A stretch of 64,000 bases of DNA, from the NCBI GenBank assembly GCA_963704725.1, contig OY969934.1, positions 832,001 through 896,000 of the forward strand. Reading direction: 5' to 3'. Shown here one piece after another: positions 11,435-32,092 of this stretch. Positions within the stretch are counted from its first letter, which is position 1. Each line of letters opens with the position of its first letter. The position numbers and the translations under genes are program-made. The notes under the pieces are model-generated. The model worked only from the letters and a program-made list of their open reading frames with translations. It made no database searches and had not been told where the DNA came from. Source of the stretch: an uncultured Actinomycetes bacterium (GTDB lineage: Bacteria > Actinomycetota > UBA4738 > HRBIN12).

Positions 11435-11442
11435 TGGGGGGC

Positions 11443-12311
11443 CTACTGTTCAAGCTCGAAGGCGACCCCCATCTTGCTCATCATCTCGATGCAGACCGCC
11501 ACGTGGACGGCCATTCCTGCGTTGAGGAACTGCTGCTCGACGAAGCGGCGGCCCCCCTGGTTGACCTCAGGGCTGAAACCCAGTGGGTAGTGCATCGTGG
11601 TGCTCTGGATGCCCCACACGGTCCCGTTCACATCGAACAGCGGGCCCCCGCTTTGCCCCCGAAGGCCCGGACTGGACGTTTCGATGAACCTCACCGGCAC
11701 GTCGCCGCTTCGGTCTCCGATTGCCTCACGGGTGAAGATGCCTTCGATGGAGAACAACGGCGGGGGGACCGCGCCCGCCGGGAACCGGAAGGCTTTGGGC
11801 GTGGCCTGTTCGTCGTACACGGCGTCGATGACGTGGAACGGGTACCCGAGGCGACAGAGACTCCGCCCGGGCTTCATCGTCGTCGCCGGGTCCTTGAACC
11901 TGGGGAAACTGGGACGCCGGACATGTCCAAGCCGTTGAGCTTCACGACCGCGATGTCGGCGGCCTCGACCCGCGCCGCTTCTGACAAGCTGACACCATCC
12001 TGCCCCCACCAGTACGAGTAGTCCTTGACGGCGTCGGGCGCGGGCCGCAGTTTGCGCTTCCGTCGCGCTTTCCTTGGTGGTGGTGGGGTCGTGGTTGATG
12101 GGTGGCGTCGTTCGGCCGCCCGGACCCGCACGACCTCATCGCGAAGGGCCTCGTGAGGGGCCACGAGGTGCGACGCCGTGAGGACCCAACCTTCGGCGTT
12201 CACGATGACGAACGCCCCAAGACTGCACTCGACCTTACCGTCGACCCGGCATTGCGACAGCGCCACTGGTCGAGTGAACCCCGCCGCGACTTCCCAAGCT
12301 TTCGCGAACAT
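11443..12311 (-). pseudogene. Trypsin-like serine protease, split by one frameshift near 11911
   Basis: Triad spread over two frames: LTASHL and ADIAVVKL in 11874..12311, GQSGGPL in 11443..12009. Confidence 0.8.
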
Positions 12312-12516
12312 CCCACCTCACCGCACCCTTCGACTGGGACCGGCGGGGAAGGCTGAGGCGCCGGTCGCTCGGCAACTGCCTCCACGGGGAAGCTAGCAGC
12401 GGGGAATGACACGCTTGAAACCCGCTATCGGGCCGCGCCCCACAGCCCGTCGAGGGTTCGGTGACCGTTTCGGTGACCGACCCCCCGTCAGGGGTCGCGG
12501 GAAGACCTGTTTTCGC

Positions 12517-12592
12517 TGGTGCCCCCGGCAGGAATCGAACCTGCGACACGCGGTTTAGGAAACCGCTGCTCTATCCACTGAGCTACGAGGGC
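12517..12592 (-). tRNA. tRNA-Arg (anticodon CCT)
   Basis: GCCCTCGTAGCTCAGTGGATAGAGCAGCGGTTTCCTAAACCGCGTGTCGCAGGTTCGATTCCTGCCGGGGGCACCA: full cloverleaf, TTCGA T-loop, encoded CCA. Confidence 0.97.
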
Positions 12593-12762
12593 GGAGCTGG
12601 CAAGTAATGCGGCAAGTAATCCCAGCACCCGTCCGACTCGTCAACCGGTTCAGAGAGTCTGAGTGGTAGGGACCGGGCTTCCATCGACTCTCGGGGGCTC
12701 TGGAAGGGGCAGTGGGCGGAGTCCACCCAGGCTTGTTGAGCGGATCCGTCCGAGCTGGAAGC

Positions 12763-14242
12763 TTACGCAGCGAGATCCAAGCTGCTGCCTCGCCCGGACG
12801 CGAGCGAGGGTGATGGCGTTGACGAACGCGCTCGTAGCCGAGGAGGTCAACCATCTGGCCACGCCAGCCCTTGGCGGAAGCCTTCTTCTTCCACAGGGCC
12901 TCCTCGATGGAGTTGTTGATCGACTCCGAATCGGGGCGCAGCGCCCAGAGCCGCTCGAAGTCCTTGGAGCCCTCCGGGATGGCCCGGAGGTTCTCGGTGC
13001 GGTTCAGTCCCCGGCGGCCGTCCTCGCGCGTCGTGTCCAACCTGAGGCAGATCTCGATTCCGCCGTACTCCTCGGGGAGCCGGGAGAAGCCGTACCAGCG
13101 GTGCCGCTTCTTGGTCTTGTGCGGCTGGATGCGCGTGCAGGTGAGGGGCTCATAGTGCGGATCACCGGTGTCGGTCAGCGTCTTGACGCACGCCCACCCG
13201 TCCTTGGCGGCGATGTGGACGATCTCCTTGCTCCCGTCCGGCATCACCACGGTGATGTCGTCGATGTCGGCAGTCTTCGGGACGTACTCGCCCTTCTTGC
13301 GCCCCTTGCCCCGTTTCGGGTTCGCCTTCGCGTGAACCTGGACCACCGGAACCAGGCCGAGCACGGTGAGGATCTCCTGGAGGTGCTCACCCCGCAAGGC
13401 CATGTCCCAGACGACGGACTGCGCCCCCGGAGCGTACCGGCGGATGCGAGCCAGCAAGACGAGCGCCATGGCGGCCTCGTCGTTCTCGACGTGCTCGGCG
13501 CCGAGCATGAACCTGCCCTCGTCACAGCGGACGCTCGCGGTGGCGAAGTTGAGGCCCCAGACCCTATCCCCACCGCCCTCGACGTGCCAGGCGGCGTCGG
13601 GATCGAAGCGCACCTCCCGTCTTTCGCCCGTCTCCGGGTCGACCCTCTTGGTTCCGGGCTTCGCGCCGTAGAGCGCCTCGATCTTCTTCCCGTCGCCGAA
13701 GATCGATCGCGTGATCTCAGGATGGGTGGGGCTCCCGCCTCCTTCGGGGGCTCAAGAAGGCCCGCGGTCCGGGCTTGACGGACGGCGAACTCGGTGTGGA
13801 TCTCGAGCGAGCGCTCGATCGCGGCGTCCGTGGCGAGGTACCTGTCGCGCATATACGCATGCGCCTGTCTGGTCGGGGGCTTCCGGGGCAGCTCGGGGAG
13901 CTCGGGGTGGAGCCGCTTCATTTCGCGCCGGATGTACCTCCACCATCCGCCCTTCCTGAGCTCGCGCACCGCCATCGTGAGGGAGGGGAAGATCGCCCAC
14001 AGCTCCGGCATCAGCGTCCACACGAACTCGGGGTAGATCCGACTCCTGCCGACCGAACCGGCCGGCTTCGGCGGGATCACTTCGGCGGCCGCGAACTTGG
14101 CGTCGTCACGAAGAAGGACATCGATGCGCTCCCGGATTGAGAGTGCCCCGTCCTCGACCGGCAGGACGCGCGACTGGGGCTCGGGGCAAGCCCGCGGGGG
14201 CCGGCGTTGCCAGCGCCTGGCTCGGGAGGATGCCGCCCTCAT
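12763..14242 (-). pseudogene. DDE-type transposase-like protein (IS4-superfamily-like), frameshifted near 13748 and 12835
   Basis: Joined frames give SIFGDGKK (D1), VVWDMALRG (D2) and W-AL-R-PDS-E-SINNSI-E, a YREK-like signature. ATG overlaps the upstream stop (ATGA). Confidence 0.6.
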
Positions 14243-15189
14243 CGGCCGTTACCCGCGCGCCAGTCGAACCCGATGAGCTTGACGGTCTCGTCCAGGGATC
14301 GCATGCCGAGCAGGAGGGCGACCTCGTGAAGGGGCGTGCCCTCATCGAGCGCCTTTCGGCCGGCCCACGAAACGATCGAGCGCGGCCTGATGCCGGGGGC
14401 AGTGAGTCCGGCAGCGCGTAGCGTCTCCTTGACGGCCTGGGCGCATGCGGCCCGCAGTGTGCGCGGCGTCGTGCGCCACACGATCAGTGATGCGTCGGGG
14501 TCGCTCACCGACCGGAGGCGCCGTTTCACCTGGATGAGTCCCCAGTCGGTCAGTTGGCCCCAGCGCGCATCGACGGTGGGCGATCCCGGAAGCCACACTC
14601 GCGCGAGCTCCACCTCGACGTCGCGCACGCGGACCCGGCCCATCTCGGAGGTCCGAGCGGTCGCCTCGCTCAGCGCCCAGGTGATCGAGCGGCGATGGTC
14701 GACGGGCGAAGGGACCGCCCGTGATTGCCCTCGCTCATGCTCCTCGTCCGTCAGTGGGCGGGTCAGCAGGACTCCGCGCTCGGGGACCGGGATCCCTAGC
14801 GTGGGATCGTGGTCCATCAGCCCGAGGCGGATCGCCTCCTGACTCATGGTGCGAAACGCGAAGAGCCGCGAGCGCTCGGTCAACTCAGTCGGCCTGCGGC
14901 CCTTAGAGGAGCGGGCCTCCATGCGAGCAAGGACGTGCTCGTTCGTGATGTCAGCCGGATCCGTGATGCCGCAGCCGTTTCGCAGGAACCGCGCGGATCG
15001 CTCCAGGTCATCTGCCCTGAATGCGGCCGTTTCCGACTTGTAGCGACCCGTCTCGAGCAGGCTCGTCAGCACGGCGCTGGCCACTTCTTCGACTGAAAGG
15101 CAGAGGTCGTGACCGCGTGAGGCGGTGGCGCCATCTGCGCCCGATTCCTGACCGTTTCGCCCTCGATCACTCTCGTGTCCGGATCCCAC
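14239..15189 (-). CDS. Tyrosine-recombinase-fold protein lacking HxxR, H/W and catalytic Tyr (paralogue 2)
   Basis: Core-binding-like N-half (GLMDHDPT..IPVP...RPLT), ATARTSEM..VRVRDV, LLGMRSLDETVKLIG. The true start may be the ATG at 15311 (ATGA-coupled) with an indel. Confidence 0.75.
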   Translation of the reverse strand: MGSGHESDRGRNGQESGADGATASRGHDLCLSVEEVASAVLTSLLETGRYKSETAAFRADDLERSARFLRNGCGITDPADITNEHVLARMEARSSKGRRPTELTERSRLFAFRTMSQEAIRLGLMDHDPTLGIPVPERGVLLTRPLTDEEHERGQSRAVPSPVDHRRSITWALSEATARTSEMGRVRVRDVEVELARVWLPGSPTVDARWGQLTDWGLIQVKRRLRSVSDPDASLIVWRTTPRTLRAACAQAVKETLRAAGLTAPGIRPRSIVSWAGRKALDEGTPLHEVALLLGMRSLDETVKLIGFDWRAGNGR

Positions 15190-15307
15190 CGCGCATGCCT
15201 CCTACTGCTGACGGCGGGTCTGAATCCACGGAAGGCACCACGGGCCGCGAATACACCATCGGTCGAGGAGGTTTCTTCGGCTCCTTGCGGGACGGGCTCT
15301 CGCGCGG

Positions 15308-16252
15308 TCATCGTTCGACTCGCTCGCGCAGGTCACGCGCGTCGCGCCAGTCCCAGCCGATGAACTCGGCCGTTCGGTCAAGGCTCCGGATGCCGAGCAT
15401 CGAGGCGATGCCATTGATTGGGACGCCCCCGGCGAACGCCCGCGCGCCCGCCCAGGCCGCGACCGAGGCCGGACGCACGTCCGGCTCGCGCGCGAGCCCG
15501 GCCCGGCGAAGCGTGGTCGCGATGGCGATAGAGGCCGACGACGTGGCGCTCACGCTGCTCCTGGCCGTGGCGCAGACGAGCGGGGTAGTTGGGTGAACGT
15601 CTCCGAGCGCACGCACTCGGCGCTCGAGTTGGACGGTTCCCCAGTCGGACACCACGCCCCACCTCGGGTCCGTCTTTGAGCTGCCGGCGATCCAGACACG
15701 GGCAGCGCCAAGGTCGAGGTCGCACACACGTACACGCGCGAGCTCGCCGCTCTTGGCTGTTGCCTCGGCGACCGCCCATGCGGCCGCCGCGCGCGTCTCG
15801 ACGAGCGTGTGGATCGAGTAGGAGCGACAGAGCGTCACCTCGTCGTCGGTCAACGGACGCGCGCGAAGCGAGGACCGGGGCGGAAGGACAATGTCCAGGG
15901 TCGGATCATGGTCGACGAGGCCCAGCCGACGGCCCTCGAGGAACTCCAGGCGCACGGCGGAGCGACGGAAGTGCATCGTCCCGACCGCGGGCGGTGTCCC
16001 CTTCTTCGACCTCGCTCTCACGAACCCCTCGGCGACGTCACGCGTCACCTCCGAGGCGAGGCCGATGCCGCACCCGCGCTCGGCATAGCTGGAGAACCTG
16101 CGCATCAGATCGGAGAGGCGATCGACGCTGTCGAGCGACAGCCCCCGTTCGGCCATCGCCGCCACGGCGGCGGCGTGTAGTTCGCGGAGTGTGGTCGGTG
16201 AGTCGGTATCACCTGAGGGAGTGGTCGCCTGGTGAGATCGAGCCGAGGACAC
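15308..16252 (-). CDS. Tyrosine-recombinase-fold protein lacking catalytic residues (paralogue 1)
   Basis: GLVDHDPT.DIVLP...RPLTDDE, ATAKSGEL..VRVCDLD, RPASVAAWAG in place of HxLRH, MLGIRSLDRTAEFIG in place of LGHxxxxxTxxY. Confidence 0.78.
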   Translation of the reverse strand: MSSARSHQATTPSGDTDSPTTLRELHAAAVAAMAERGLSLDSVDRLSDLMRRFSSYAERGCGIGLASEVTRDVAEGFVRARSKKGTPPAVGTMHFRRSAVRLEFLEGRRLGLVDHDPTLDIVLPPRSSLRARPLTDDEVTLCRSYSIHTLVETRAAAAWAVAEATAKSGELARVRVCDLDLGAARVWIAGSSKTDPRWGVVSDWGTVQLERRVRALGDVHPTTPLVCATARSSVSATSSASIAIATTLRRAGLAREPDVRPASVAAWAGARAFAGGVPINGIASMLGIRSLDRTAEFIGWDWRDARDLRERVER

Positions 16253-16258
16253 GGCGGG

Positions 16259-17083
16259 CTACCCCCTTCGAGGGCGCACGGGCGGCAGGTTGGCCTCGGT
16301 CGGATCGACCACGAGCTCAAGATGAGGATGCGGCTTGCGTCGACGTCCGCTCGGCGGAACAGGTTCTTCGCCCTCAGATCCGAGCCACGTTCCGAGGATC
16401 GCCGTCACGCCGTCGGCCAAATACGAACAGAAGGAGCAGGCGGCCGTTGCCTCTGGAGGCGTGGGGCGATCGAGCAGATCGGCAACGCTGCCCAGGAAGG
16501 CCATGAACTCGCCGTCGCGGCGCGTGACCTCGATCCAGTGCGTCTCGCCCCGGTAGGCGGCTCCTCCGCGGGTCGCCGTCATCCGAGTGGGCTCGAAGCA
16601 TAGGAGACCGAGCCGGGTGACGGGCTTCAGCATCAGGCTCCCGGGAGCAGGCGTCTCTGCTGCAAGCGCATAGGCGTGGAGCTGCCGCCCATACAGAGCT
16701 GCATGGTGCGGTTTGGGGACGGTCGTCTTGTAGTCGACGATCGCGAAGGAGCCGTCGTCGAACCCGATCGCCGAGTCGATTCGACCGACGATGAACAAGC
16801 GGCGGTCGTGCCCGGGGACGTGGATCGGCATCGAGCGAAGCCGCCGGTCGCCGTGGACGATCCGTCCCGGCGGCAGGTCCGGCGAGATCCGCTCGCTCCG
16901 CTTGCCATCGAAGAACGCCTTGGCCTGCAGATCCAGCAGGGTGAAGACCCTCGGGAAAGGCGTCCTCGGGCGCGGGAAGTTCCCCGCCACCTTCAGCCAG
17001 AAGCAGCGAGGGCACTCCTCGAACAGGAACGTGAGGTCGGACGGGCTCAGCTTCCAGGCTGCGCCCACATGTAGGCTAGACAC
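16259..17083 (-). CDS. PD-(D/E)XK nuclease, Cas4/RecB-like with 4 Cys
   Basis: LSPS...ECPRCFW, GRIDSAI, IVDYKT, QLHAYA, CSFC. GTG start estimated. Confidence 0.85.
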   Translation of the reverse strand: MSSLHVGAAWKLSPSDLTFLFEECPRCFWLKVAGNFPRPRTPFPRVFTLLDLQAKAFFDGKRSERISPDLPPGRIVHGDRRLRSMPIHVPGHDRRLFIVGRIDSAIGFDDGSFAIVDYKTTVPKPHHAALYGRQLHAYALAAETPAPGSLMLKPVTRLGLLCFEPTRMTATRGGAAYRGETHWIEVTRRDGEFMAFLGSVADLLDRPTPPEATAACSFCSYLADGVTAILGTWLGSEGEEPVPPSGRRRKPHPHLELVVDPTEANLPPVRPRRG

Positions 17084-17155
17084 GTCGGGACCCCCAATCC
17101 GGGCTCCGGCCAAGCCCCGGGGCGTTCCACCGCCGCCGGGGCTCTGCCTTATCCG

Positions 17156-17219
17156 TTGACAGGCGCAATAATAACCAAAAACAATAGCGTGCGTCAATGG
17201 TTGCGGTAGGATTCCGCCT
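17156..17219. promoter_or_regulatory. AT-rich divergent promoter region
   Basis: Minus strand TTGACG (17197-17192)-N18-TATTAT (17173-17168). Plus strand TAGGAT (17207-17212) lies 7 nt before ATG 17220, suggesting a leaderless mRNA. Imperfect IR TTGACAGGCGC / GCGTGCGTCAA. Confidence 0.55.
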
Positions 17220-17718: not shown

Positions 17719-19773
17719 ATGACGTACTTGCAGTGGAACGACGCGTTGGCTCGCCACTTCTTCCACCCTGAGCAGGCGGGGCAGCAAGTGTGGCTGTATG
17801 TCACGGATACTCTTGTTGGCGAGTTGGGTTCCCAGGCCGGCGATGGTGATGTCTCTGGTTTCGTTGCAGCCGTACGCGAGGGTCCTCCATGGTGTGCTGC
17901 CTCGCATCTGTGCAGGCGTGCATTAGAGGCATGGGATGGCTGGCGTGATCGAGGAATCGAGTACCCGCCGTATGTCGGGTACCTGAGCCTGTTCGTGCTT
18001 GCGGCTGGCCTTGAAGGGGACTTCGCAAGACATGCCTACTACCCGCGCCTCCGCGCCCTGCTGCGAGAGGGCGGGGAAGGAGCGCTTCCTTCCTTCTCGC
18101 GGATGCTTGAACTGTGGGACGACTTGGAGCGCTGGTCGGTTCATGATCGCGACGGCAAGCTTGGGCTGTTCGAAGCTCGGATTGTCGGCGGCCACATACA
18201 CGTAGGCCTCCCAATCGCGCAGACCATCCTCTCTGAAGACGAACGCCGAGCTCTCCCGCGGATGTTCGCGGTCGCGGGCCTGGATCCAACATCGCCCCCT
18301 CCAGATGACGAGCTGGCGCGGATGCTGAGAGCTCAGGGCGGAACGGTCCTTCGTCCCCGAACCCGCAAACTCGTCCGCACGAGGCGAGACGCCGAGAGCT
18401 TCGCCGTGCTGGTGGACACGGTGGCGGAGGAGCTCGCTGAGTGGGACGGAACCTACGAGGATGATGATCTTGCGGATGCAGGCACCCCGGTCCGTGGCCG
18501 CAGCTACGGCAGCATTCGCCTCTGTGTTGAGGTCGACAGGACAGCTGAGCGGGTGTCCTCGTCACTTCGCTGCCGCCTCAGGCGGGAGTTCCCAGCCGGG
18601 ACCCTTCATCTGAACGGCCAGGGTCTGCCGCTGCTGGCCTGTTCGGAGAGCGGGCTTCCCGGATGGTCGTCACCCCTGGTGAACGCGGCAACGCAGGAGT
18701 TCTTTGATGCGTCTGCAGTGGATTGGGTCAATGGAGTCTGGCTCGCGGAAGAACGACTCGGGTGGCGCTTTGCACTCCCAGCGCGTCAGGTCCGAGTCCT
18801 TGTGGCGGGGCGCGGAGAGGGGTTGCCTGGCCTTGTCGAGGTGCGGCAGGTCCCCCGTGGGCAACCCGTCTACTTCCTATACCGCCGCGAGGACTGGGAA
18901 GCACTCGCAGGCTGGGCAGAGGCGGAGTGCACCAGGTTCGAGCAGCTACCCGTTCGGGATGGGATCCCTCCAGGATGGCGGCTTGCAGCATGCCTTGAAG
19001 TCAGGGGCGATCGTCAGGTGCGTTCGGCCTTCCCCGAGTTGGCTCTCTCAGAGCGGGCGCGACTGGCCCTCGTAGGAGGTGTTAGGAGCGGTCCGGGACT
19101 GAGCTTCTTCCCGTTCGCTCCGCCCAGCCTCTTGCTTGAGGGAGGCGATGGCCGGGAGTCGGTGCTCTGCAACGGGCAGACGCTGGCCGCAGGTGACGTC
19201 GCCCGGTCGTTTGAGATCCCTTATGGACTGCCGGTGGAGACCAGAATCACGCTTGAAGTGAAGCGCGGAGGAGAGCCGCTCAAGAGCCGGTCCATCTACC
19301 TGAGGGGCCAGTCTGAATGGCGCCTCACGACACCCCAGCAAGTGGTCGACCGGCTCGGTCATCCAGCAGAAGACCCCAAGACCGGAGTGGCCGGAGCGCT
19401 GCCGATCGGTCTCCCCTCGACGGAAGGGTTCAGCCCTTCGCTGATGTTGACCCCTGGCGTGAAGCCGGGTGCGGCCAGGGTGTTGTTCATCGGCCGCGTT
19501 CCAGGGGAGATCTACTCATGGCCGAGCGAGTCCGGCCCGCCCGGGTGGTCGCCAGTCTGGGCAGTGCCGATGGGCCGGCGCGGCCAAGCCGTCTACTGCG
19601 GAACAAGCGTGGAGACGGACATTCCGGCCCCGGACGAACGCAAGGGCGATTGCGACCGCGTGAAGTTCTGGAGGCTCGTGATGTGGCATCGGCGGAAACG
19701 GATCAGAGAGCCCGAAGAGCCCGAGCTCGCGGTTCTCTGGCGCTCGTATGTCGAGGCCGCTCGCCATGTATGA
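17719..19773 (+). CDS. Large hypothetical protein, first gene of Druantia-like operon
   Basis: 684-aa intact ORF overlapping the next gene. Role inferred from its position upstream of a DUF1998-type helicase. Confidence 0.7.
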   Translation: MTYLQWNDALARHFFHPEQAGQQVWLYVTDTLVGELGSQAGDGDVSGFVAAVREGPPWCAASHLCRRALEAWDGWRDRGIEYPPYVGYLSLFVLAAGLEGDFARHAYYPRLRALLREGGEGALPSFSRMLELWDDLERWSVHDRDGKLGLFEARIVGGHIHVGLPIAQTILSEDERRALPRMFAVAGLDPTSPPPDDELARMLRAQGGTVLRPRTRKLVRTRRDAESFAVLVDTVAEELAEWDGTYEDDDLADAGTPVRGRSYGSIRLCVEVDRTAERVSSSLRCRLRREFPAGTLHLNGQGLPLLACSESGLPGWSSPLVNAATQEFFDASAVDWVNGVWLAEERLGWRFALPARQVRVLVAGRGEGLPGLVEVRQVPRGQPVYFLYRREDWEALAGWAEAECTRFEQLPVRDGIPPGWRLAACLEVRGDRQVRSAFPELALSERARLALVGGVRSGPGLSFFPFAPPSLLLEGGDGRESVLCNGQTLAAGDVARSFEIPYGLPVETRITLEVKRGGEPLKSRSIYLRGQSEWRLTTPQQVVDRLGHPAEDPKTGVAGALPIGLPSTEGFSPSLMLTPGVKPGAARVLFIGRVPGEIYSWPSESGPPGWSPVWAVPMGRRGQAVYCGTSVETDIPAPDERKGDCDRVKFWRLVMWHRRKRIREPEEPELAVLWRSYVEAARHV

Positions 19774-20767
19774 GTTCGGCGATGCTCTCTTGTTCACTCT
19801 GTCGGCTTGGCGGCACTGCACTTGGCGGCAATTCCGGCGCGCCTTTGACGATCTTCACGCTCGGTTCCTTGCGACCGGAGGTGCGGTCGCCACAGACGAT
19901 GACGCCTATGTTCGATCGAATACCGCTCGCCTGTTGGACTCTCTCGGACATTGCGACTCCCTCTTCGATCCTGGCGGAGGCGGGAGCGTGCTCGTGGCGC
20001 CCAGCGTGCTCGCACGGCTACCCGTGGCGGGGCTGCCTCGCGCAGTCCTCTGCGGCTCACGATCGCCTGAGACCCTTGAAGCGTTCCAGCGTGCCAAGGA
20101 GCGCGCTGGCGGCTCGGTGCAGGTGCGTGATGGATCGCAGGGATCGCTGAACGCCTTCGCACCGACTCGGATCGAGGTTCAAGCGGTGTCTGATGCGGCA
20201 ATGGGCAAGCTCTCGGCTGATGTGGGCGTGATCTACGTCTCAGAGCCCCCCGCGTGGTCTCTTGCGCAGTTCAGCGGATCGCTGGAGAGCTTCCTTGGAT
20301 TGCTGAGATGGCGGACCCGTCCAGATCTGACCTGGGCACGCGCTGACTTCGATCCTGCTGGGCTGCGGTTCGCCGGCGAACGAGACTCCGAGGCGCTCAT
20401 CCTCAGCCGCTACCAGGATCCTGTCAGCGGCCGCTGGAGCTTCTGGTTGCGGCGAGGGGACGAGTGCGCAGAAATCGACGACCCGTCCTGGGGTCGCTAC
20501 GCGGTCTTGGCTGAGCACCGGCGCAGGGTGCTTCAGTTTGACGCAGCAACGGGAGAGCTCGCCGTCCCGGCGAGCTCTCCTCTTCCGCGGCTGATCGCCA
20601 GAGCCGCCACCCTCGCCTCTGGATATGCTCCGAGAACGGTTGTTAGCGTGGATGGCGAGTCGGGGCTGCGACGCAGACTCCTCGTGTACGGGAGGGTGCC
20701 AGTCGACGTTTGGGAAAGGCTCGCGATGAGGGTGGGGCAACTCTCAGTTGGAGGCGGGGATCGATGA
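19766..20767 (+). CDS. Hypothetical protein, second gene of Druantia-like operon
   Basis: 333 aa from MYEFGDALL. Overlaps the upstream stop, and its own stop overlaps the helicase ATG. Confidence 0.7.
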   Translation: MYEFGDALLFTLSAWRHCTWRQFRRAFDDLHARFLATGGAVATDDDAYVRSNTARLLDSLGHCDSLFDPGGGGSVLVAPSVLARLPVAGLPRAVLCGSRSPETLEAFQRAKERAGGSVQVRDGSQGSLNAFAPTRIEVQAVSDAAMGKLSADVGVIYVSEPPAWSLAQFSGSLESFLGLLRWRTRPDLTWARADFDPAGLRFAGERDSEALILSRYQDPVSGRWSFWLRRGDECAEIDDPSWGRYAVLAEHRRRVLQFDAATGELAVPASSPLPRLIARAATLASGYAPRTVVSVDGESGLRRRLLVYGRVPVDVWERLAMRVGQLSVGGGDR

Positions 20768-23700
20768 CGGAATCCATGAGCGATCCCTCGGGTGCCTTCG
20801 CGAAGGTACGCGAGAGCCTGATTCTGTACATCAAGACCGCCTTCGGAACCCAGTTCCCCAGTTTCGAGCAGGAACGGGAGGACCTGCTGAGGCGGTCCGC
20901 CGTCCTCTGCCAGGAGCCGTGGATCGAACCGCTGCCCCGATACCAGGGCTCAGGGAAACGGATCGCCGACCTGACCACGGCAGACGTGCCCGGGCTCGCA
21001 GGAGAGGCGGTCGAGGACTTCAAGACCATGTCCGCATGCGGGCTCGTCGGTTCGTACGAGCTTCGACGCCATCAGCTCGAGATGCTTGGCCGGGCCCTCT
21101 CAAGCGAGCACTGCGTTGTCACCGCGGGTACCGGGTCCGGCAAGACGGAGGCGTTCCTGCTGCCGCTGTTCGCGTATCTAGCGGACGAGTCACGAAGCTG
21201 GGCACAACCGGGCGCTACCTCTGCCCACCACGGCGACTGGTGGGCGAACGGGGATTGGCGGGAGCAGTGCCTGCGGCGGACCGCCAAGCAGACAAGGATG
21301 ATCCGGTCCCTGCGCGTGCCTCAGCGGCAGCATGAGAGTCGCCCGGCGGCGGTCCGCGCGCTCATCGTCTACCCGATGAATGCCCTTGTAGAGGACCAGC
21401 TAAGCCGGCTGAGGAAGGCACTTGACTCCCCGGAAGCACACGACTGGTTTGCCGAGCATCGAAGCGGAAACCGCGTGTACTTCGGACGGTACAACGGGGC
21501 ATCTCCAGTGCCTGGGCATGAGTACAACCCGTTGAACAAGCAGGGGAAGCAGAGCCCGAACCGAAAGAAGGTCGAAGAACTCGCGACCGCGTTGGAGCAG
21601 GCGGATAGGGCCGCCGCCGCGGCAGCAAATCATGCGCAGCAAAGCGGGGATCCGGATGTTCGGTACTTCTTCCCGCGGCTAGATGGCGCTGAGATGCGAT
21701 CGAGATGGGACATGCAGGATGCTCCACCGGACATCCTCATAACGAACTTCAGCATGCTCGGCATCATGCTCATGCGCGATGCCGACAGGCGCATCTTCGA
21801 CGCGACTCGTGACTGGCTGCTCGAGGATGGGAGCATCTTCCATCTCATCGTCGACGAGCTCCACCTCTATCGGGGAACTGCAGGCACTGAGGTTGCCTAC
21901 CTCATGCGGCTACTCCTCGAGCGACTTGGGCTGGAACCAGGACACCCGAAACTGAGGGTTCTCGCCTCAAGCGCTTCGCTGGAACCTGATGATCCGGACA
22001 GCGCGAAGTACCTATCTGACTTCTTTGGGACAGAGTGGGCGAGCGAGCAGATTATTCCAGGCTACCCAGCACCCGCCCCGGCACTGGCGGCATCCTCCGC
22101 CCTGCCTGCAGACGCCTTGGCGAATATGGGGCATGCGCTTGAGGTCGACAGTGATGAGCTCGCTGCTGTGGGCGCCGACGTTGCTGCCGAGCTTGATGGT
22201 GGCGCTGGGGCAAGTTGGGAAGATGCTCTCGCCCAAGCGCTGGAGGGTGAGGAGCTCCAACTCGGCTCACGGATGCTGCAGGCGTGCGAGGTGGACGGTG
22301 TGACTCGGGCCGTACCCCTGACCACATTCGGGCGACGGCTCTTCGGAAGTGGGGTCAGCGATGAGCGGAGCGCCGACGCGGTGCGGGGGCTCCTATTCGC
22401 CCGCACCCTCTGCGATCCGGTCAAAAGCAACCTGCCGACGTTCAGGCTGCACTGGTTCTTCCGCAACTTCGAAGGGTTATGGGGATGCACAGCACCCAGG
22501 TGCCCGGCCGCCTCCGCAGCTGCGGATGATGGGCGCACGTCGGGGCAGCTGTATTCGGATTCGAGGATCCTGTGCCAGAACCCGACCGAGCGCCACCGCG
22601 TCCTTGAGCTTCTCTACTGCGAGCAGTGTGGCACCACCTTCTTCGGTGGCAGCCGAATGGAAATCTCTGACAACGGCGGATGGGAACTGCTGACGGCGGA
22701 CCCAGACATCGAGGGGATTCCCGATCGCCAGGCTGCGCGGTTCGTGGAGCGACGCACGTACGGCGATTTCGCACTGTTCTGGCCCCAGGGGGATGCTGAC
22801 CTGAGCCAGAACGCGATGGCTTGGCACCAGCCGACACTCGACGGCACTCCTTCCTCCAGCGCTCGGTGGGTTCCGTCGGCGCTGGATACTCGGAGCGGGC
22901 GGCTCGTGCTCGGCAAGGGAGGTCAGCCGTATCCGCAGGGCCCGTGGGTCTCTGGTTACAAGTATCTCCTCGACCAGGCGACTGACCCCCAGAGTGTGAG
23001 TGCGCTGCCCGCCGTCTGTCCGAGATGTGCGGGGGACTACACGCGGCGAAAGTTCCGGCGGTCCCCAGTGCGGGGTTTCAGGACTGGTTTCTCGAAGGTC
23101 ACCCAACTCCTCTCGAAGGAGCTGTTCCACTTCCTCCCAGAGGAGTCTCGGAAGGTCGTTGTGTTCTCCGACAGCCGTGAGGAAGCGGCCGGTCTGTCAA
23201 ACGGAATCGAGCGATCGCACTATCTCGATTTGGTTCGAGAGGCAATGTACGACGAGCTCCACCAGCTAGCGGTCGATGAACCACGATTGCTGAAGGAGCT
23301 TCAGCATGGTTCATCAGGGCTATCTAAGACAGCTGTGCAGTTCGCGGCCCTAAACCCAGGCATCAGGGAACATTTCGAGCGCCAGATCCTCGCCGCTTCT
23401 GCGCCCATACCCGACGTGAACGATCCGGGCCAGCGAGCTGTGTTGGAAGCCTATAGATCGGGCGCCCAAGCAGAACTGGATGCGGTGGTGGATCGGGGTG
23501 CCACGCGCACGGTGGCGCTCCGCCTACTCTTCGAGGCCAAGGACAGTTCTGACGCGTGGACCGGGCCGGGGGCACTCATACAACGGCTTAAGACACTGGG
23601 TGTGAACCCGGGAGGGAACGACGTCCTGTACCAGGACTACAGTTACGAAGGCCACTACAACCGATGGACCAAGCTCTTCGACTTCTCCAATCCGATGGGT

Positions 23701-26596
23701 GGGTGGCTGCCCGGGCTGACCGGCGAGGCTGTGGATGCCCGCGAGAAGTTACGGGACAAGGTCGCTTCGGAAGTCTGCAGCGTGTTGTTCAGCCGCCTGT
23801 ACTTTGGTTTCGAGTCGGCGGGTCTGGGGTTCGCCCGTCTTGATCTCCCGTGGGAGTCGATCGAGCAGCGCGCGGCGGAGTGCGGGAGCAGACGCGGGTC
23901 TCTTCGGCAGGATCTGCGACGCCACGGTGCGAGTAATGGGGGAGCTCTATCGGTACCACCAGGAGCCCGCGGAGTATCCGCTGGACAGCTGGCCCGACTG
24001 GAACTCGGCTCGCGCGAAGCTCCGCAATTTCGTCAAGGCCGTCGCGGCCGCGAACTCACTCAACGAAGCTGATTTGCTGCGGTCGGTCCGCGAGGCGATA
24101 TGCGCAGACGGCGGGCACCATGATTTCATCCTCGACCCGCGTCACCTGCTCGTCAGGATCGCCCTTCCGGAGAATCCCGCATGGGTTTGCGGCGAGTGCC
24201 GTCGGGCGCACCTGCATACTGCAGGCGTCTGTACCAACTGCCTGGAGCGGCTGGATGATGCGCCGTCAACAGCGTGCTCGGAGCTACATGGCCACAATTA
24301 CTACGCGAAGGAGGCAGTTGAAGGGCGGCAGCCTTTGAGGCTGCACTGCGAGGAACTGACGGCACAGACGGACGATCAGCCTGAGCGGCAGCGCCTCTTC
24401 CGGGACATCACGGTTGACCTCCGTGAGGATCCGAGGCATCCAGTCGTTGACGGAGTTGATGAGATCGACGTACTAAGCGTCACCACCACGATGGAGGTGG
24501 GCGTCGACATCGGAAGCCTGCAAGCAGTGGTCCTCGGCAACATGCCGCCTATGCGCTTCAACTATCAGCAAAGGTCCGGCCGGGCAGGCCGTAGAGGTCA
24601 GCCGTTCGCGATTGTGCAGACCCTCTGCCGTGGGCGCAGCCACGACGACTTCTACTTCAGGAATCCTGAGCGAATCACGGGCGACCGACCACCCGTGCCC
24701 TTCCTCTCCATGGCGCGCCCAGAGATCGTACAGCGCCTTGCGTCCAAGGAGGCGCTGCGGCGGGCGTTCCTCGCAGCAGGAGTTGGGTGGGACGAGAGCC
24801 CTGTACCTCCTGACAGCCACGGAGAGTTTGGCCTCGCTGCTACGTGGAACAGCGATGAGGGTCGGCGCGCTGCGGTCAATGGGTGGCTTGCTTCTTCGCC
24901 CGATGTGAACGGCGTCATTGGAGCGCTCACTTCTGGAATCAAGGAAGGGGTGGACCTGGCCAGGCTCGAAGCCTTCATTCGGAACGAACTGTTCCAGCGA
25001 GTGTGCGATGCGGCGGTGAACCCTGAGCTCACCGGTGATGGGTTGGCGGAGCGCCTGGCGGAGGCTGCCATCCTCCCCATGTATGGCATGCCATCTCGCA
25101 GCAGGCTCCTCTACCACCAGCTTCGCGGCGCGAAGCCGAGCACCATTGATCGGGATCTCGACTTAGCCGTGACGGAGTTCGCTCCTGGGTCGCAGCGCAC
25201 AAAGGACAAACGCATCCATCAGGCGATCGGCTTCACGGCGCCGCTCATGTACAGGAGCGGAAGATGGGAGCCCCGACTGAGCCTGACCCGCTTCCGGGAC
25301 GGCGATGGATGCTCCGCTGCGAGCGGTGTCACTACACGGGGACTGCGGACCACGAGCCGGCCGATGTCTTCTGCCCGGAGTGCGGATGTGCCAAGGACGA
25401 ACCGGTACCGTTTCGCGTCTACGAGTTCGCGGTTCCCCTTGCGTTCCGGACAAGTCTCGGCCCGGGAGGCGATGCAAAGGATGTGGATGAGTTTCTGGCT
25501 GTTGGTGCGGCCGCTGTGGCGGAGTCTGACCAAGAGCCCTGCAAGCAGGTTCCGGGCACTAACAGCGCTCTCGCGTTCTCCGCAGCCGGCCGCGTGTACC
25601 GAGTGAATGATCGGCGAGGCCTGCTCTTCAATGGGAAGCTTGGCGAAACGCTACGCCGCAACCAGCGCCTCAAGACTCAGTGGATCGATGAACGTTTCAG
25701 TGATGCGGATGGAATCACGTTTACGACGACCACCTCGGCCCAGTCCGTAGCTATCGCGGCTCCAAAGACGACGGACGTGCTCCGCATCCGTCCAGACGCT
25801 AACCCTCCGGGTCTATCGCTTGACCCCCTCGCGATCGATCCCGTTATCTCCCGCGGTGGGGTGATGGCCCGAGTCAGGGCGGGGGTGAAGGCTGCCTACT
25901 ACTCGGCTGCGTTCATTCTGCGGTCGGTCGCTGCTGAGGCTCTTGATACGGATCCCGAGGAGTTCGATGTCAGCAACGTCAGGCAGGTGGAGCTCGATGG
26001 GAGATGTGCGAGCTGGGGAGATCGTGCTGAGCGACCACCTCGCCAATGGCGCTGGGTTTGTCAGATGGGTCAGCGATCACTGGGGCGAGATTCTCTCAAG
26101 CATCGTGCGGCTGGACGCCCCCGCGAAGACTTTCATCGGCGACATGACGTCCGAGAAGCACCGAGTTGAGTGCGACTCGGCCGGCTACGACTGCCTCCGC
26201 CAGTATCGCAACATGAGCTACCACGGGCTGCTGGACTGGCGGCTCGGACTCTCCCTCCTCCGTTGCCTGCACTCCGTCGAGTTCGCGGCTGGGGCCGATG
26301 GGCAGTTTGCGACTCCCGACCTCGACGGGTGGCTGGACCTGGCCAGACAGCGACGAGACTCCTTTTGTTCGACGTTCGACTGCTTGCCAGCGGACTTCGG
26401 GCCCCTGCCAGGCTTTGAAGTCGGCGCCAAGCAGGTGATCGTCGTGCATCCGTTGTGGAACACGTATCAGCCTTCCGGCCTCCTGGCGGAGGCTCGGGCT
26501 CAGACTGGATCCGCAGGGGCGGATGCGATCCGTTACGTGGACACTTTCAACCTTATGCGGCGGGAAAGCTGGACCTACCAGCGTCTCGGGGAATGA
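20764..26596 (+). CDS. Very large SF2 DEAD/DEAH helicase with C-terminal DUF1998-like region (DruE-like); three apparent single-base indels near 23885, 25272 and 25998
   Basis: [61 protein letters not shown], several Cxx[11 protein letters not shown] and [23 protein letters not shown], spread across 4 consecutive frames. Confidence 0.88.
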
Positions 26597-27789
26597 CCCG
26601 CTCAATACAACCCGGGCTTCTTACGTTCCGGCCTCTGCTGGCTCCGCTTAAGAGCATCTCGCCGACGAGTTACGTGGGGCTTCGCCAATGCGCGCTGCGC
26701 GGGGTGTGGGCTTCGGCTAGAACCTCAGAGCTCCTTCCCTCCGTTCCGGCCGCTCGAGTGGGAAGTGTCATCCACCGCCTCCTTGAAGCGGCTGGAAGCG
26801 GGACCTTCCTCCGGGGGGACGCTTCGGCAGTGGACCGTTCTTGGCAGGAGCTTATTGCTGCTGTTGAGGAGCGGATGCGCTCTAGCTGGTTGGAGGAGCA
26901 TCTGGTGCCGCTCAGCCATTCGGTGCCGGACTTCGAAGTGAGGCGGATCCAGGCCCGGAGCAGAGCGCTCGATCTTGCCGACGCGGTGGCCCGCACTTCG
27001 GACCGACGGGCTACCAGCGGCGGCGGCTCGCTAGCGCTACAAGGATGTGAGGTGGCAGTCTCCACTTCGGATGGCCGCGTGCGGGGACGCATCGACGCGA
27101 TCGTCATCGATAGCGGGGGGCCCGTTGTTCGCGACTACAAGTCGGGTGTCATCTTCGACATCGGAGCCGGGAAGGGGCACGTCCTCAAGGAGGCTTACCG
27201 GATCCAGCTCCGTATGTACGCGGCTCTATACGCGGAGACCGCCGGGAGGTGGCCGGTTCGGCTTGAGGTTGTCCCGATCCGCGGAACCCCGGAGGGCGTC
27301 GCATTCGATCCCGATTCCTGTAATGCGCTTGTTGAAGCTGCAAGTGCGCTACTGGAGACCGTGAACGAAGCCATTCGCCAGGAATCCACCGCGGGACACA
27401 TTCAAGAGATGTTGGCCCGGCCGCAACCGGAGACCTGCGCGCACTGCCCGTTTCGGCCCGGATGCCGGCCATATCGAACCGCGCGAGCTGCAGGCGGCGA
27501 GGGATGGCCGCATGACGTGTGGGGACGGCTAACAAGCATCGTGACCCTTGGTCGGGGCGGGGCGATGATAGAGGTGGACTCCGGCGACGGCGTAATCCGA
27601 ATCCGGGGTCTGGGTCAGGCCGGGCGGCATCCTGCCCTGAGGATCCTGGAGCGGGGAGACGCGGTTGCCGTCTTCAACGCACGCCCCACAGGGTCGCAAG
27701 CGATGTTCGCCGAGTCCTCACATACGGTGATCTACAAGCTTGAACAGCCTTCCGCATCGACCCAGGTAGAGGGGTGGAGCGGGCCCTAG
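26593..27789 (+). CDS. PD-(D/E)XK nuclease (AddB/Cas4-like) coupled to the helicase
   Basis: ATGA overlap with helicase stop. ISPTS..C, GSVIHRLLE, GRIDAI, VRDYKSG, QLRMYA, CAHCPFRPGC. Confidence 0.88.
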   Translation: MTRSIQPGLLTFRPLLAPLKSISPTSYVGLRQCALRGVWASARTSELLPSVPAARVGSVIHRLLEAAGSGTFLRGDASAVDRSWQELIAAVEERMRSSWLEEHLVPLSHSVPDFEVRRIQARSRALDLADAVARTSDRRATSGGGSLALQGCEVAVSTSDGRVRGRIDAIVIDSGGPVVRDYKSGVIFDIGAGKGHVLKEAYRIQLRMYAALYAETAGRWPVRLEVVPIRGTPEGVAFDPDSCNALVEAASALLETVNEAIRQESTAGHIQEMLARPQPETCAHCPFRPGCRPYRTARAAGGEGWPHDVWGRLTSIVTLGRGGAMIEVDSGDGVIRIRGLGQAGRHPALRILERGDAVAVFNARPTGSQAMFAESSHTVIYKLEQPSASTQVEGWSGP

Positions 27790-28001: not shown

Positions 28002-28660
28002 ATGGCCGGTGCGCTCGAAAGGATCGATGAGCTGCTTGAGGTGACTTATCGCTCAGCGGATCTGGGGAACGTTGAGACCCGCTCTCCGAAACCGTGTACA
28101 TCCTCCTCGCCAAACAGACGCGAGAGACCGTGTACCGCCCGATGTTCAAGCGCCTACACGAGCGGTTCCCCCGGTGGATTGACATCTTGGAGGCATCCCC
28201 GTCTGAGGTCGAGGACGTCCTCCGTTCGGGCGGCTTCCAAAGGCAACGCACCGCGCAACTGAGGGCGCTCCTCAAGGCCATCCTGCAAGAGAACCTAACG
28301 CGTGATACGGGACCGGCGAAGGGGGAGGATCTCACACTCGGGTACCTGCGTGAGTTAGGAGACGCCGAAGTGGAGCGGTCTCTTCTTCGGCTCCCTGGAA
28401 TAGGCCCCAAGTCAGCGCGGTGCGTGATGTCCTACGCCCTTGGCAGGCACCGGTTTGCCGTGGACACTCACGTTCACCGGATCTTCCAGCGTCTCGGGTT
28501 GCGTCCGTCCAAGGGCCGGAAGAACGATCATGATCCATTCGAGGCGATCGTCCCTGAGAAGATGCGCAAGCGTCTGCACGTGAATCTGGTCCATCACGGG
28601 CGCGCCGATCTGCCGTACAACGAAACCACGTTGCGGTGATTGTGTCCTCGTGTCGTTCTG
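28002..28660 (+). CDS. HhH-GPD (endonuclease III-like) DNA glycosylase domain with [4Fe-4S] motif; indels near 28075 and 28606; apparently fused to the downstream methyltransferase
   Basis: LLRLPGIGPKSARCV (HhH, Lys), AVDTHVHRI (catalytic Asp), HHGR. In the next frame: IC-RTTKPR-C-GD-C-VLVSF-C (C-x6-C-x2-C-x5-C). Confidence 0.85.
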
Positions 28661-29729
28661 CCATGAAGGCGTTGCTCGACTTCGCAAGGGACAGGACACG
28701 AGGCCACGCGCTGTCGATCTGTTTGCGGGAGCCGGGGGCATGGGGCTGGGATTCCGGCAAGCTGGCTACCGTATCGTGGCAGCCGTTGAGCAGGATCGCC
28801 ACGCTGCCCAGACTTATCGAGCGAACAATCCAGGAGTGCCGGTGATTGAAGCAGATGTGACGAGACTCAGCGGTAGGGATCTCAGCAAGTACGTGCCGGG
28901 GCGAGGCGGTCTGGAGGTTCTCCTTGCCGGGCCACCTTGCCAGGGATACTCAGCCGCGGGAGCGCGTCAGCCGGAGGACCCACGCAATCAGATGTTCCGC
29001 CATGTCAGTAGGCTCGCGAGCGAACTCAGGGCGAGGGTCGTAATCTTCGAGAACGTCCCCGGTCTGCGGCGGGTCAATGGCACGGGGTTCCTGCCCAGCA
29101 TCCTTAGTTCCCTGCGAGCCCGGCGGTACCGTGCCAGAGCGCATCTGGTGACGGCGTCGGACTTCGGCGTGCCGCAGAACAGGAGGCGCTACTTCATACT
29201 TGCGCGGCAGGCCGATGCTGGCGGTCCTCTCCCGCCACCGCCAGCAACACACCGTCTTCCAGGCGGCATGGGATCTGAAGGCCTACCTGTAACGCCCACC
29301 GTGCTTGAGACTCTCCGTAGTCTTCCCGCATTCGGACCCGGCGAGCAGGCCGAGTGGCGAACGCTCCCGGACGGATCCGAGCTCCTGAACGCGTCGACCA
29401 TGGATCATTCGGATGCGGTGATAGCGAAGATCAGGAGGATCAAACCGGGCGGCGGTCCGATCTCGTACCGCCGGCTTGAAGGCGATCTAGCGCGAACTCT
29501 GGTCGCGGGGCACCGTGCCTTGCCGGTCCATCCGACGGTCGATAGGACAATGTCCGTCCGCGAGGCCGCCCGGCTCCAGGGGTTCCCCGACAACTACGTG
29601 TTCTGCGGGCCGAGAGCGGATCAACCGCTGCAGGTCGCCAACGCCGTGCCGCCTCCAGTCGCGCGAGCGCTAGGTCAGCACCTTCTCCCTCATGTGGCGG
29701 CTCGGAAGGCTCTCGCTTCGCGATCGTGA
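28650..29729 (+). CDS. DNA (cytosine-5)-methyltransferase domain
   Basis: Motif I DLFAGAGG, IV GPPCQGYS, VI FENVPGL, VIII QNRRRYF, IX REAARLQGFPD, X QVANAVPP. Confidence 0.95.
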   Translation: MSFCHEGVARLRKGQDTRPRAVDLFAGAGGMGLGFRQAGYRIVAAVEQDRHAAQTYRANNPGVPVIEADVTRLSGRDLSKYVPGRGGLEVLLAGPPCQGYSAAGARQPEDPRNQMFRHVSRLASELRARVVIFENVPGLRRVNGTGFLPSILSSLRARRYRARAHLVTASDFGVPQNRRRYFILARQADAGGPLPPPPATHRLPGGMGSEGLPVTPTVLETLRSLPAFGPGEQAEWRTLPDGSELLNASTMDHSDAVIAKIRRIKPGGGPISYRRLEGDLARTLVAGHRALPVHPTVDRTMSVREAARLQGFPDNYVFCGPRADQPLQVANAVPPPVARALGQHLLPHVAARKALASRS

Positions 29730-30036: not shown

Positions 30037-31305
30037 TGGGACTGCCCCAGAGTTTGGTTGACTCCTGAGCTGGGAGGATGACCCTCCCGGGAAGGAGACT
30101 CCACATGCCCCAGGTGTACCCCCTGGAGTTCCGCTGGGACGTCGTCGCCGTGGCCAGGCGCAGAGAAGCCCCGCTCACCCAGATCGCCAAGGACTTCGGC
30201 GTCTCCCCGACGTGTCTGCACCGCTGGTTGAAGCGGGCAGAGATCGAAGACGGCGTCCGTGACGGCCTGCATGCTCGCCGAGGAGGCCGAGATCCGTGGG
30301 CTTCCGCAAGCGCAACCGGCTGCTCGAGCAGGAGAACGAGGTCCTTCGCCGGGCCGCCATCTACCTGGGCCAGGGTGTCCTCCCAAAATGATGTACCCGC
30401 TGGTCCGCGAGCTGGCCGTCGACGGCATCCCCGTCACGGTGACCTGCCGGGTGCTCGGGTTCTCCACCCAGGCCTAGCTACAAGTGGCGCTCGAACCCGG
30501 TCTCGGATCGGGGACTGGTCCGACGCCCACCTCGTCGACGCCGCCCTGCGGACGTCCACGCCGACGACCCCGCCTTCGGCTACCGGTTCATCGCCGACGA
30601 GCTGGCCGCGGAGCACGGGATCACCGCGAGCGAGAACCGGGTGCACCGTCTGTGCAGCGCACACGGCATCTTCTCCGCGCTCGCCCACAAGGCCGGCCGG
30701 CGCCCCAGGCCCGGAGAAGCGGTGGCGGACGACCTGGTCCGCCGGGTCTTCGCCGCCGACGTTCCCAACGCCCTCTGGTACACCGACATCACGGAGCACC
30801 GCACGGACGAGGGCAAGCTCTACCTGTGCTGCGCTGAAGGACGCCTGCTCGGGTCGCATCGTGGGCTACTCGATGGACCTCGAGGATGAAGGCCTCCCTC
30901 GCGGTGGCGGCCGTCCGCAACGCCATCGAGCTTCGCCGGGCCCGTGCTTATACTGTGCTGCACTCCGACAGGGGCAGCCAATTCCGCTCCAAGAAGTTCG
31001 TCCGGCTGCTCCGCAACCACGGCCTCCTCGGGTCGATGGGCCGCACCGGCACCTGCGCCGACAACGCCGCCATGGAGTCGTTCTTCGCCCTGCTGCAGCA
31101 CAACGGGCTGGACCGGGGGCGCTGGCAGACCAGGGAGGAGCTCCGCCTGGCGATCGTCACCTGGATCGAACGCACCACCACCGCCGGCGCCGTCAGCGGG
31201 CCCTCGGTAAGCTCACCCCGATCGAGTTCGAGGCCGTGCACGAGGTCGCTTAAGCGGCCTGAAAGCCGTCAACCCCGCGAGTCAACCAAACCTGGGGCAG
31301 ACCCA
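30037..31305 (+). mobile_element. Degenerate IS3-family insertion sequence (multiple frameshifts)
   Basis: IRL TGGGACTGCCCCAGAGTTTGGTTGACTC matches the reverse complement of the right end, TGGGTCTGCCCCAGGTTTGGTTGACTC. OrfA MPQVYPLEFR...IAKDFGVS, OrfB WYTDITEH, HSDRGSQF, DNAAMESFF. Confidence 0.9.
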
Positions 31306-31375
31306 CCCGAGGTTGACCGGATGTCGGCGGACTCCAACCAGGAGGGGGAAGTGGGAAGTGATGGGCACGGTGAGG

Positions 31376-32092
31376 CTACCCAGCGCATAGCAGATCGGCA
31401 GTCGCATGAACTAGGTCGGCGATCAAGGCCATGGCTGTGTCGCATTGCTTGACCACATTCGCGGGTGCCCGATGGTTGCGTTGGACGCTCGGGGAGGACG
31501 GGTTGGCGTAGTCCAGCTGATGCGCGATGTCGTTGCGGGCCTTGAAGAAGCCGTCGAGCGCGGAGAACCGCCTAGACGGGAGCCTTAGGTTCGTGATGCC
31601 GAGCACATCCCTTACCCGTTCCTTGAGGTCACTGCTGCCCTGGAAGCTCGCTTTGGTCATGGCGCCCATATAGCGCTCGATGAGCTGGGACCTCGGATCT
31701 GCGGCGGCGATCGCATCGAGCAGTCCATCGGGTGGCTTTGGCTCGTAGAGTTGGCTCTTCAGGTACTCGCGGAATCGGACTTCTGCGGTACCTCCGCGAT
31801 GCAACAGTACTGGTAGGGCGTCGCGGATCAGCTGTTGACAGCACGCGTCGATTCCACTGGACGTGAAGACCAGGGCGGCACGAAGCAGGTTCACCTGATC
31901 CCGGCTCAACCGGCCCTTTGTACTGCCCTTCGCTTGGCTGGCAACCTCTCGGATGCGCGAGAAGCTGTCGAGCAGGCCGGTGACGCTCTCGTGGGTGGCC
32001 TTGAGGTATCGCCACGTCCGCCGGACCTGAGGGCATCGTCCGGTTGGGGCGCTGGGGAGCGAGGCAAGCGAGAAGGACTTGAGGCCTGGCAC
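31376..32092 (-). CDS. HEPN-domain protein (putative RNase)
   Basis: LLRAALVFTSSGIDA N-terminal helix and FKARNDIAHQ (R-x4-H). Confidence 0.7.
   Translation of the reverse strand: MPGLKSFSLASLPSAPTGRCPQVRRTWRYLKATHESVTGLLDSFSRIREVASQAKGSTKGRLSRDQVNLLRAALVFTSSGIDACCQQLIRDALPVLLHRGGTAEVRFREYLKSQLYEPKPPDGLLDAIAAADPRSQLIERYMGAMTKASFQGSSDLKERVRDVLGITNLRLPSRRFSALDGFFKARNDIAHQLDYANPSSPSVQRNHRAPANVVKQCDTAMALIADLVHATADLLCAG

Follow-up and report, generated by a model that had tools for sequence, protein, structure and literature searches.

The window, a stretch of 64,000 nucleotides from an uncultured Actinomycetes bacterium (assembly GCA_963704725.1, contig OY969934.1, positions 832,001 to 896,000), carries at 28002–29729 an endonuclease III (EndoIII)-like HhH-GPD/[4Fe-4S] DNA glycosylase and a C5 cytosine methylase encoded in line and interrupted by two single-base breaks, as read from the DNA and its three-frame translation. 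The two domains in line had already been noticed in an earlier reading of the letters (the sequence-only reading), and this observation is confirmed. The fusion is the last gene of a predicted type IV Druantia operon, DruF–DruL–DruE–DruK, on the same strand. The features of the gene and of the surrounding island are collected in Table 1.

Table 1. The fusion gene and its island (positions in the window)
Feature	Position	Strand	Basis and remarks
DruF	17719–19773	+	intact, 684 aa; PADLOC DruF4 7e-168, model positions 1–678 of 678
DruL	19748–20767	+	intact, 339 aa; PADLOC DruL4 1.4e-55
DruE helicase, four collinear pieces	20710–26596	+	PADLOC 2e-288; frameshifts at 23889/23891, 25273 and 25995–26006
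DruK, PD-(D/E)XK nuclease	26593–27789	+	PADLOC DruK 2.6e-27; Pfam PDDEXK_1 1.5e-19
N-terminal helix of the EndoIII-like domain, MAGALERIDELLEVTYRSADLGNVE	28002–28076	+	frame 3 from ATG 28002; ends at missing base
HhH-GPD six-helix core	28076–28606	+	frame 2; Pfam PF00730 4.3e-12
One-base surplus within gcgcgccgatc	28607 (about)	+	shifts reading back to frame 3
[4Fe-4S] cluster loop ICRTTKPRCGDCVLVSFC, C-x6-C-x2-C-x5-C	28608–28661	+	frame 3 translation
Linker and C5 cytosine methylase	28662–29729	+	PF00145 4.9e-58; stop 29727–29729
Degenerate IS3-family element bounding the island	30078–31452	+	Pfam HTH and partial rve; transposase in three frames

Alignment of the intact homologue P0002 to the window with tblastn runs through frames 3, 2 and 3, with junctions at 28076 and 28599–28606. 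The three pieces are 67–74% identical to P0002 and collinear with intact homologues of 558–623 aa, and this in-order alignment is far beyond chance. At the first junction a base is missing, the G at 28076 being common to GAG and GAC; the second carries a surplus base. Both places (28070–28080 and about 28606) had been suspected in the sequence-only reading, and tblastn and translation agree that they are true features of the assembly; the possibility that the window copy is a pseudogene was left unconsidered there. Frame 2, from DPLSETVYILL to HVNLVHHGRA (28076 to about 28606), includes DPLSETVYILLAKQTRE, LPGIGPKSARCV and FAVDTHVHRIF, with the Gln wedge in KQTRE, the helix–hairpin–helix (HhH) Lys encoded by aag at 28409–28411 and the catalytic Asp by gac at 28463–28465. 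The iron–sulfur loop lies exactly where it had first been placed. Beyond it, frame 3 is stop-free up to the end of the gene (DLFAGAGG ... PPCQGYS ... ENVPG ... QNRRR ... ANAVPP), and methylase motifs I (FAGAGG, 28722–28739), IV (PCQ, 28935–28943, Cys at 28938–28940), VI (ENV, 29049–29057), VIII (QxRxR) and X are all present. The window copy scores 46.8 bits for the HhH-GPD domain (Pfam cut-off 26.2), 197.5 bits for the DNA_methylase domain (Pfam cut-off 22) and 161 bits for TIGR00675 (dcm, NCBIfam), above its cut-off of 100.65. The true start may be further upstream, in a frame that is open from GTG 27774. As assembled, the fusion gene has no single open frame, and the genome's own gene call is an open reading frame (ORF) of 181 aa (P0121). 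A stand-alone methylase ORF of 359 aa could begin at GTG 28650; if the breaks are real, this methylase could still be made and the glycosylase would be lost.

Homologues were searched for with the 380-residue frame 3 stretch, and the counts given here rest on the best 120 matches listed. Single ORFs of 540–664 aa make up 113 of these matches, PF00730 and PF00145 are both annotated in 111 (precomputed annotation), and the top matches are 76–77% identical. The HhH Lys is kept in 112 of the 113 full-length homologues, and the Asp, the four Cys and motifs I, IV (PCQ), VI (ENV), VIII (QxRxR) and X are kept in all of them. Since these homologues are single ORFs, the two domains belong to one gene, and the proposal of a single-gene fusion, which came with the suggestion that the architecture be looked for in other genomes, stands on the 113 single ORFs of at least 540 aa. 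The family is thus a true fusion, with the glycosylase N-terminal to the methylase, that forms a separate EndoIII subclade, and the split copy in the window is the exception. A close stand-alone glycosylase family, that is, a split form, was ruled out: most short matches of more than 47% identity are broken copies or fragments at the ends of contigs, beyond which the matches to the glycosylase piece fall to at most 40% identity and are ordinary EndoIII proteins. In one other locus (L045:9824–11694) the fusion gene is likewise split into two ORFs and the adjoining DrmA looks fragmented; it is a second copy that is broken or mis-assembled.

A scan of one genome per species located the family at 55 loci in Actinomycetota, Chloroflexota, Acidobacteriota, Dormibacterota and Planctomycetota, and one NCBI record with the fusion is named as a Nitrososphaerales archaeon. 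None of 72,556 plasmid records and none of 50,697 phage records holds at least 80% of the fusion. Public records label these proteins only as cytosine methylases, and the conserved, apparently active glycosylase half has thus escaped notice. No paper on this glycosylase–methylase fusion was found in a literature search that lay outside supplements and subscription journals. The fusion gene is widespread but unstudied.

The glycosylase half is best described as an EndoIII-like domain distinct from housekeeping Nth. Compared with solved structures, the family profile matches EndoIII chains at 1.7e-32 to 1e-31 (8a5f at 1.7e-32, 4unf at 1.1e-31), Mig (1kea) at 2e-14 and the plant enzyme ROS1 (7yhq) at 1e-11, and also the bacterial C5 methylase 3g7u at 1.5e-48. 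The Lys and Asp are in register with those of Deinococcus radiodurans EndoIII-1 (GIGPKSA/AVDTH versus GVGVKTA/PVDTH of 4unf/8a5f), and LPGIGPKSA and FAVDTHVHRI of the window copy fall in register within a contiguous alignment over EndoIII residues 37–204. Against the Nth equivalog TIGR01083 (NCBIfam), with a cut-off of 211.7 bits, P0002 scores 78.7 bits and the window piece 70.9. The window's genome (G000) has a separate housekeeping nth at G000:618171-618785, which is 34% identical. Membership of the Mig/MutY group disagrees with the presence of the HhH Lys and with the far weaker match to 1kea than to EndoIII.

The sequence-only reading had also drawn attention to a resemblance to DEMETER/ROS1, which turns out to be a general EndoIII-family likeness, as the ranking of EndoIII, Mig and ROS1 and the contiguous domain indicate. 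If the domain excised 5-methylcytosine (5mC) like these enzymes, the protein would be writer and eraser of the same mark. The Lys, the Asp and the Fe-S loop of the EndoIII lineage are indeed common to both, and the ROS1 chain is detectable, albeit as a distant relative only, EndoIII being far closer. The wedge reads KQTRE, different from the ROS1 motif at this place, probably TQNVSD, and writing and erasing one mark in one protein would amount to a futile, damaging cycle. Moreover, the glycosylase domain of DEMETER-like (DML) enzymes is described as split by a long insert (PMC3045615), whereas that of the fusion is contiguous and stands without the DML C-terminal domain. The eraser idea therefore has no specific support, and we consider it very improbable.

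The operon upstream of the fusion is recognized as Druantia by its models. The DruE pieces cover PADLOC model positions 1–1009, 1016–1481, about 1400–1700 and 1688–1880; aligned by tblastn with the intact 1947-aa DruE of another locus (L013) they fall in frames 1, 2, 1 and 2, and they are collinear with homologues of 1947–1981 aa. DruK likely starts at ATG 26593, overlapping the DruE stop (ATGA). It places a PD-(D/E)XK nuclease in the same operon, directly upstream of the fusion, contrary to the earlier statement that no cognate restriction endonuclease (REase) is visible nearby. Type IV Druantia is defined as DruE, DruF and DruL without DruM (PMC8565338, Payne et al. 2021). PADLOC finds these three together here, with DruE lying in four frames instead of as an intact component, which may be an assembly artefact.

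The island is foreign and horizontally acquired, because its GC content is 63–65% against 71.3% for the genome and because the gene is in none of 60 relatives searched, four of them unpublished genomes (G011, G041, G049 and G059), where only nth-like matches (32–38% identity) or unfused methylases were found. Upstream of Druantia, at 7862–17197, an IS3-type integrase gene (7862–8635, minus strand) is followed by several minus-strand ORFs in a row, which match neither Pfam nor PADLOC except for a second PD-(D/E)XK protein (16259–17197). The GC content of this stretch is about 66–67%, and the foreign region may exceed the Druantia operon.

The 7.6 kb of DruE and the fusion contain five breaks by tblastn, three surplus and two missing bases, which may reflect either a real, recent inactivation or a local error of assembly. 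For comparison, a congener (G010) supplied 129 long ORFs out of 280 kb, and 93 of these have an orthologue of at least 60% identity in the window's genome. Frameshift-like junctions number two in these 93 orthologues (131 kb) against five in 7.6 kb here, about 40-fold rarer elsewhere. The two junctions (G000:C1:2960442-2961472 and 3041125-3042130) may be pseudogenes, errors or artefacts of stop-to-stop queries. The rpoB, rpoC and two dnaE-type genes of the genome are open frames of 1151–1317 aa, and DruF, DruL and DruK are unbroken over 4.4 kb of the same island. The breaks are mixed rather than of one error type. DruE keeps 169 of 172 conserved positions, and its three changes (R to H, T to S and A to S) all fall at positions invariant in nine homologues. 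We lean slightly towards a real, recent inactivation of the window copy and DruE.

With a chance a little short of even, the five frameshifts are instead local assembly errors, and the fusion and DruE are intact in the organism and its Druantia system works. Conserved residues are almost uneroded: in addition to the DruE positions, all 117 near-invariant positions are retained in the fusion copy, as are 207 of the 210 that are highly conserved, 207 being also the median of intact homologues. So little decay would be expected of an intact gene that had acquired indels in assembly, and it counts against inactivation. Most break sites lie at or a few bases from runs of three to four G or C. The genome is one contig of 3.45 Mb, taken as a long-read assembly, accessory islands may have lower or mixed coverage, and the L045 copy in another genome is also split. 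Other copies of the IS3 element are only about 85% identical, with 5–12 gap openings per match, and are therefore unusable as a check on errors. Programmed frameshifting and an alternative genetic code were ruled out, as the homologues are plain single ORFs, and so was phase variation, the runs at the break sites being only three to four bases long. A codon-score scan for frameshifts gave 502 candidates genome-wide; the window sites checked with Pfam were antisense shadows or split no domain, and the method was dropped. For this genome the message is accordingly the smaller one: its Druantia system, as read, is dead or mis-assembled.

In other genomes the fusion adjoins several kinds of defence system. 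The scan yielded 28 full-length loci outside the window's genome. Druantia genes like those of the window are the neighbours in 11 of them, a DISARM-like set in 10 (three of which rest on one gene at a contig end), and a GHKL-ATPase protein with a protein of 380–396 aa in six, including L007, which also has DruE 4 kb away; one locus (L021) has no known partner. The DISARM-like set (L003:178-9846, L004, L016, L020, L022, L023) is an arrangement of five genes, namely an unknown protein of 339 aa, one of 510 aa that matches DrmE_C below threshold, a NERD/UvrD helicase, DrmA and DrmB, with the fusion in the place of DrmMII. The third arrangement occurs at L010:6027-9156, L007, L015, L025 and further loci. 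It pairs a protein of 650 aa, which has a GHKL ATPase at its N terminus (HATPase_c_3, 1.3e-13) and weakly matches PADLOC REase_II, with the 380–396-aa protein, which is of no known family, and the two together possibly form a restriction system like MORC. In a quick tree of 43 rows with midpoint rooting, no fewer than nine changes of the partner label are required against a minimum of three, so that the fusion behaves as a portable modification module. The same module would serve DISARM-like and GHKL-ATPase systems besides Druantia. A review describes the methylases of the published Druantia II and DISARM systems as plain ones (PMC10273834). The PADLOC models DruM2 and DrmMII match only the methylase part of the fusion.

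A lineage that has lost the HhH core (L027–L043 and L048, at about 9700–11400 in each locus) is found mostly in sponge-associated Acidimicrobiia and in one Mycobacterium mantenii contig. It keeps the methylase, and all its members but L034, which has the DISARM-like set, and L048 adjoin GHKL-ATPase homologues, mostly with the 380–396-aa partner.

Taken together, these observations lead us to propose that the methylase marks host DNA as self for the adjoining helicase/nuclease defence system, here Druantia IV, and that the methylase carries the glycosylase domain to the methylase's target sites. At these sites the domain would remove T:G mismatches arising from deamination of 5mC, possibly also thymine glycol opposite G (Tg:G) or 5-hydroxymethyluracil opposite G (5hmU:G), and start base-excision repair. 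The glycosylase would thus be the built-in repair partner of the methylase, doing the job that Vsr does for Dcm-type methylases. Repair of 5mC products at the methylase's own sites is the most likely function of the domain, and the conserved Lys would also be compatible with oxidised substrates, with lyase chemistry or with a role as effector. As a whole, with a copy in the window that is frameshifted, this reading seems to us somewhat more probable than its negation.

The distribution of Vsr bears directly on this proposal. The Vsr domain (PF03852) has no match in the window's genome, where the fusion is the only C5 methylase. Five other fusion-bearing genomes were compared: two likewise have the fusion as the only C5 methylase and no Vsr, and two have Vsr, in both cases with an unfused methylase about 0.2 kb away; the fifth is taken up below. 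In the flanks examined, and leaving out three broken or partial rows (L045–L047), Vsr occurs beside 1 of 25 fusions with Lys and Asp intact, namely L015, where a second, unfused methylase lies alongside. The numbers are 6 of 19 for forms that have lost either the Lys or the HhH core and 3 of 8 for methylases that are not fused. Among the altered forms, the HhH Lys is replaced in L023 and L026, and the reduced forms (the core-less lineage above) keep the N-terminal helix and the Fe-S loop. The counts suggest a tendency to mutual exclusion between Vsr and glycosylase domains that are catalytically intact. Of the three functional ideas put forward in the sequence-only reading, replacement of Vsr-type repair fits this exclusion best, and neither the DEMETER-like eraser nor the restriction glycosylase gains support.

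Several points weigh against the repair proposal. The T:G glycosylases Mig, MBD4 and TDG are not known to carry the HhH Lys that the fusion family keeps; this conserved Lys points to oxidised bases or lyase chemistry and is the main argument against a simple T:G glycosylase. The fifth of the compared genomes (G063) has an unfused methylase and no Vsr, and Vsr was not found within 10 kb of eleven reduced forms (L033–L043). The Vsr counts are small and come from related loci, L028 being identical to L029 and L030 a sister of L032, so that they no more than suggest a pattern of exclusion. Finally, the closest solved relatives are weak or inactive: DrEndoIII1 is mostly monofunctional and weak on standard substrates, and DrEndoIII3 shows no detectable standard activity despite its Lys and Asp and binds damaged DNA tightly, in the account given of them (PMC9268735). 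The substrate is therefore not readable from kinship.

The behaviour of DrEndoIII3 also lends itself to a different explanation, in which the glycosylase has no tie to methylation damage and either repairs oxidised pyrimidines in general or acts as a [4Fe-4S] DNA-binding or scanning module that helps the methylase or the neighbouring defence proteins to find DNA. The domain has every canonical EndoIII feature, and no form of the protein, even a reduced one, has lost the Fe-S part. A general repair enzyme would, however, join a genome that already has its housekeeping nth, a purely structural role would need neither the Lys nor the Asp that nearly all full-length homologues keep, and loss of the catalytic core tends to go with the presence of Vsr. 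We regard this explanation as unlikely.

The HhH Lys is described as a mark of bifunctional glycosylase/lyases (PMC3045615), and its near-universal conservation could also be enlisted for a role as an immune effector. The glycosylase/lyase, directed by the recognition domain of the methylase, would nick unmethylated or oddly modified foreign DNA and give a break or flap where DruE, DrmA or the GHKL motors load. The fusion sits, but for L021 without a known partner, always with helicase/nuclease systems, unmodified 5' overhangs have been proposed to activate DISARM, and restriction glycosylases exist in another fold, as reviewed (PMC10273834). Such an effector would be a new class of restriction glycosylase on the HhH-GPD fold. 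The published Druantia II and DISARM systems, however, make do with plain methylases, the core-less lineages still have the same GHKL genes beside them, a writer and a cutter fused to each other would compete for one site on host DNA, and the Vsr pattern is not predicted. An effector role is accordingly rated as quite improbable.

Should the repair proposal hold, defence systems that mark self with 5mC would carry, in one polypeptide, their own remedy for the mutations that the mark causes, and the missing Vsr beside the fusions would be explained. The family would also offer a simple test case for a methylase and a base-excision enzyme cooperating at one site.

Among known systems, the nearest solved proteins are the EndoIII enzymes of D. 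radiodurans (EndoIII-1, 4unf/8a5f; EndoIII-3, 4uob/8a5g), which share with the fusion the HhH-GPD signature, the Gln wedge and the HhH Lys, together with a catalytic Asp 18 residues past the Lys and the C-x6-C-x2-C-x5-C loop. Unlike them, the fusion carries a methylase, and its domain shares no more than about 40% identity with stand-alone EndoIII proteins. Mig.MthI (PDB 1kea), beside M.MthTI on the Methanothermobacter plasmid pFV1, is likewise an HhH-GPD/Fe-S glycosylase tied genetically to a C5 methylase. It is a separate gene, reportedly lacks the HhH Lys and is said to be monofunctional, and the domain of the fusion is much nearer to EndoIII than to Mig. The pairing of a Dcm-type methylase with Vsr resembles the fusion in coupling a cytosine methylase to an enzyme that handles T:G damage from its marks. 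Vsr, however, has its own gene and is an endonuclease with a different fold, whereas the partner in the fusion is a base-excision glycosylase in the same polypeptide, and the equivalence would be one of function, not of membership in the Vsr family. As for Druantia IV, the DruF4, DruL4 and DruE models match strongly here, and the methylase part of the fusion matches DruM2 of type II at 5.4e-67, a model that covers no glycosylase part. In contrast to type IV as defined, Druantia is accompanied by the glycosylase–methylase, mostly also by DruK, in the window and in 11 other loci, and the definition without a methylase is revised to this extent.

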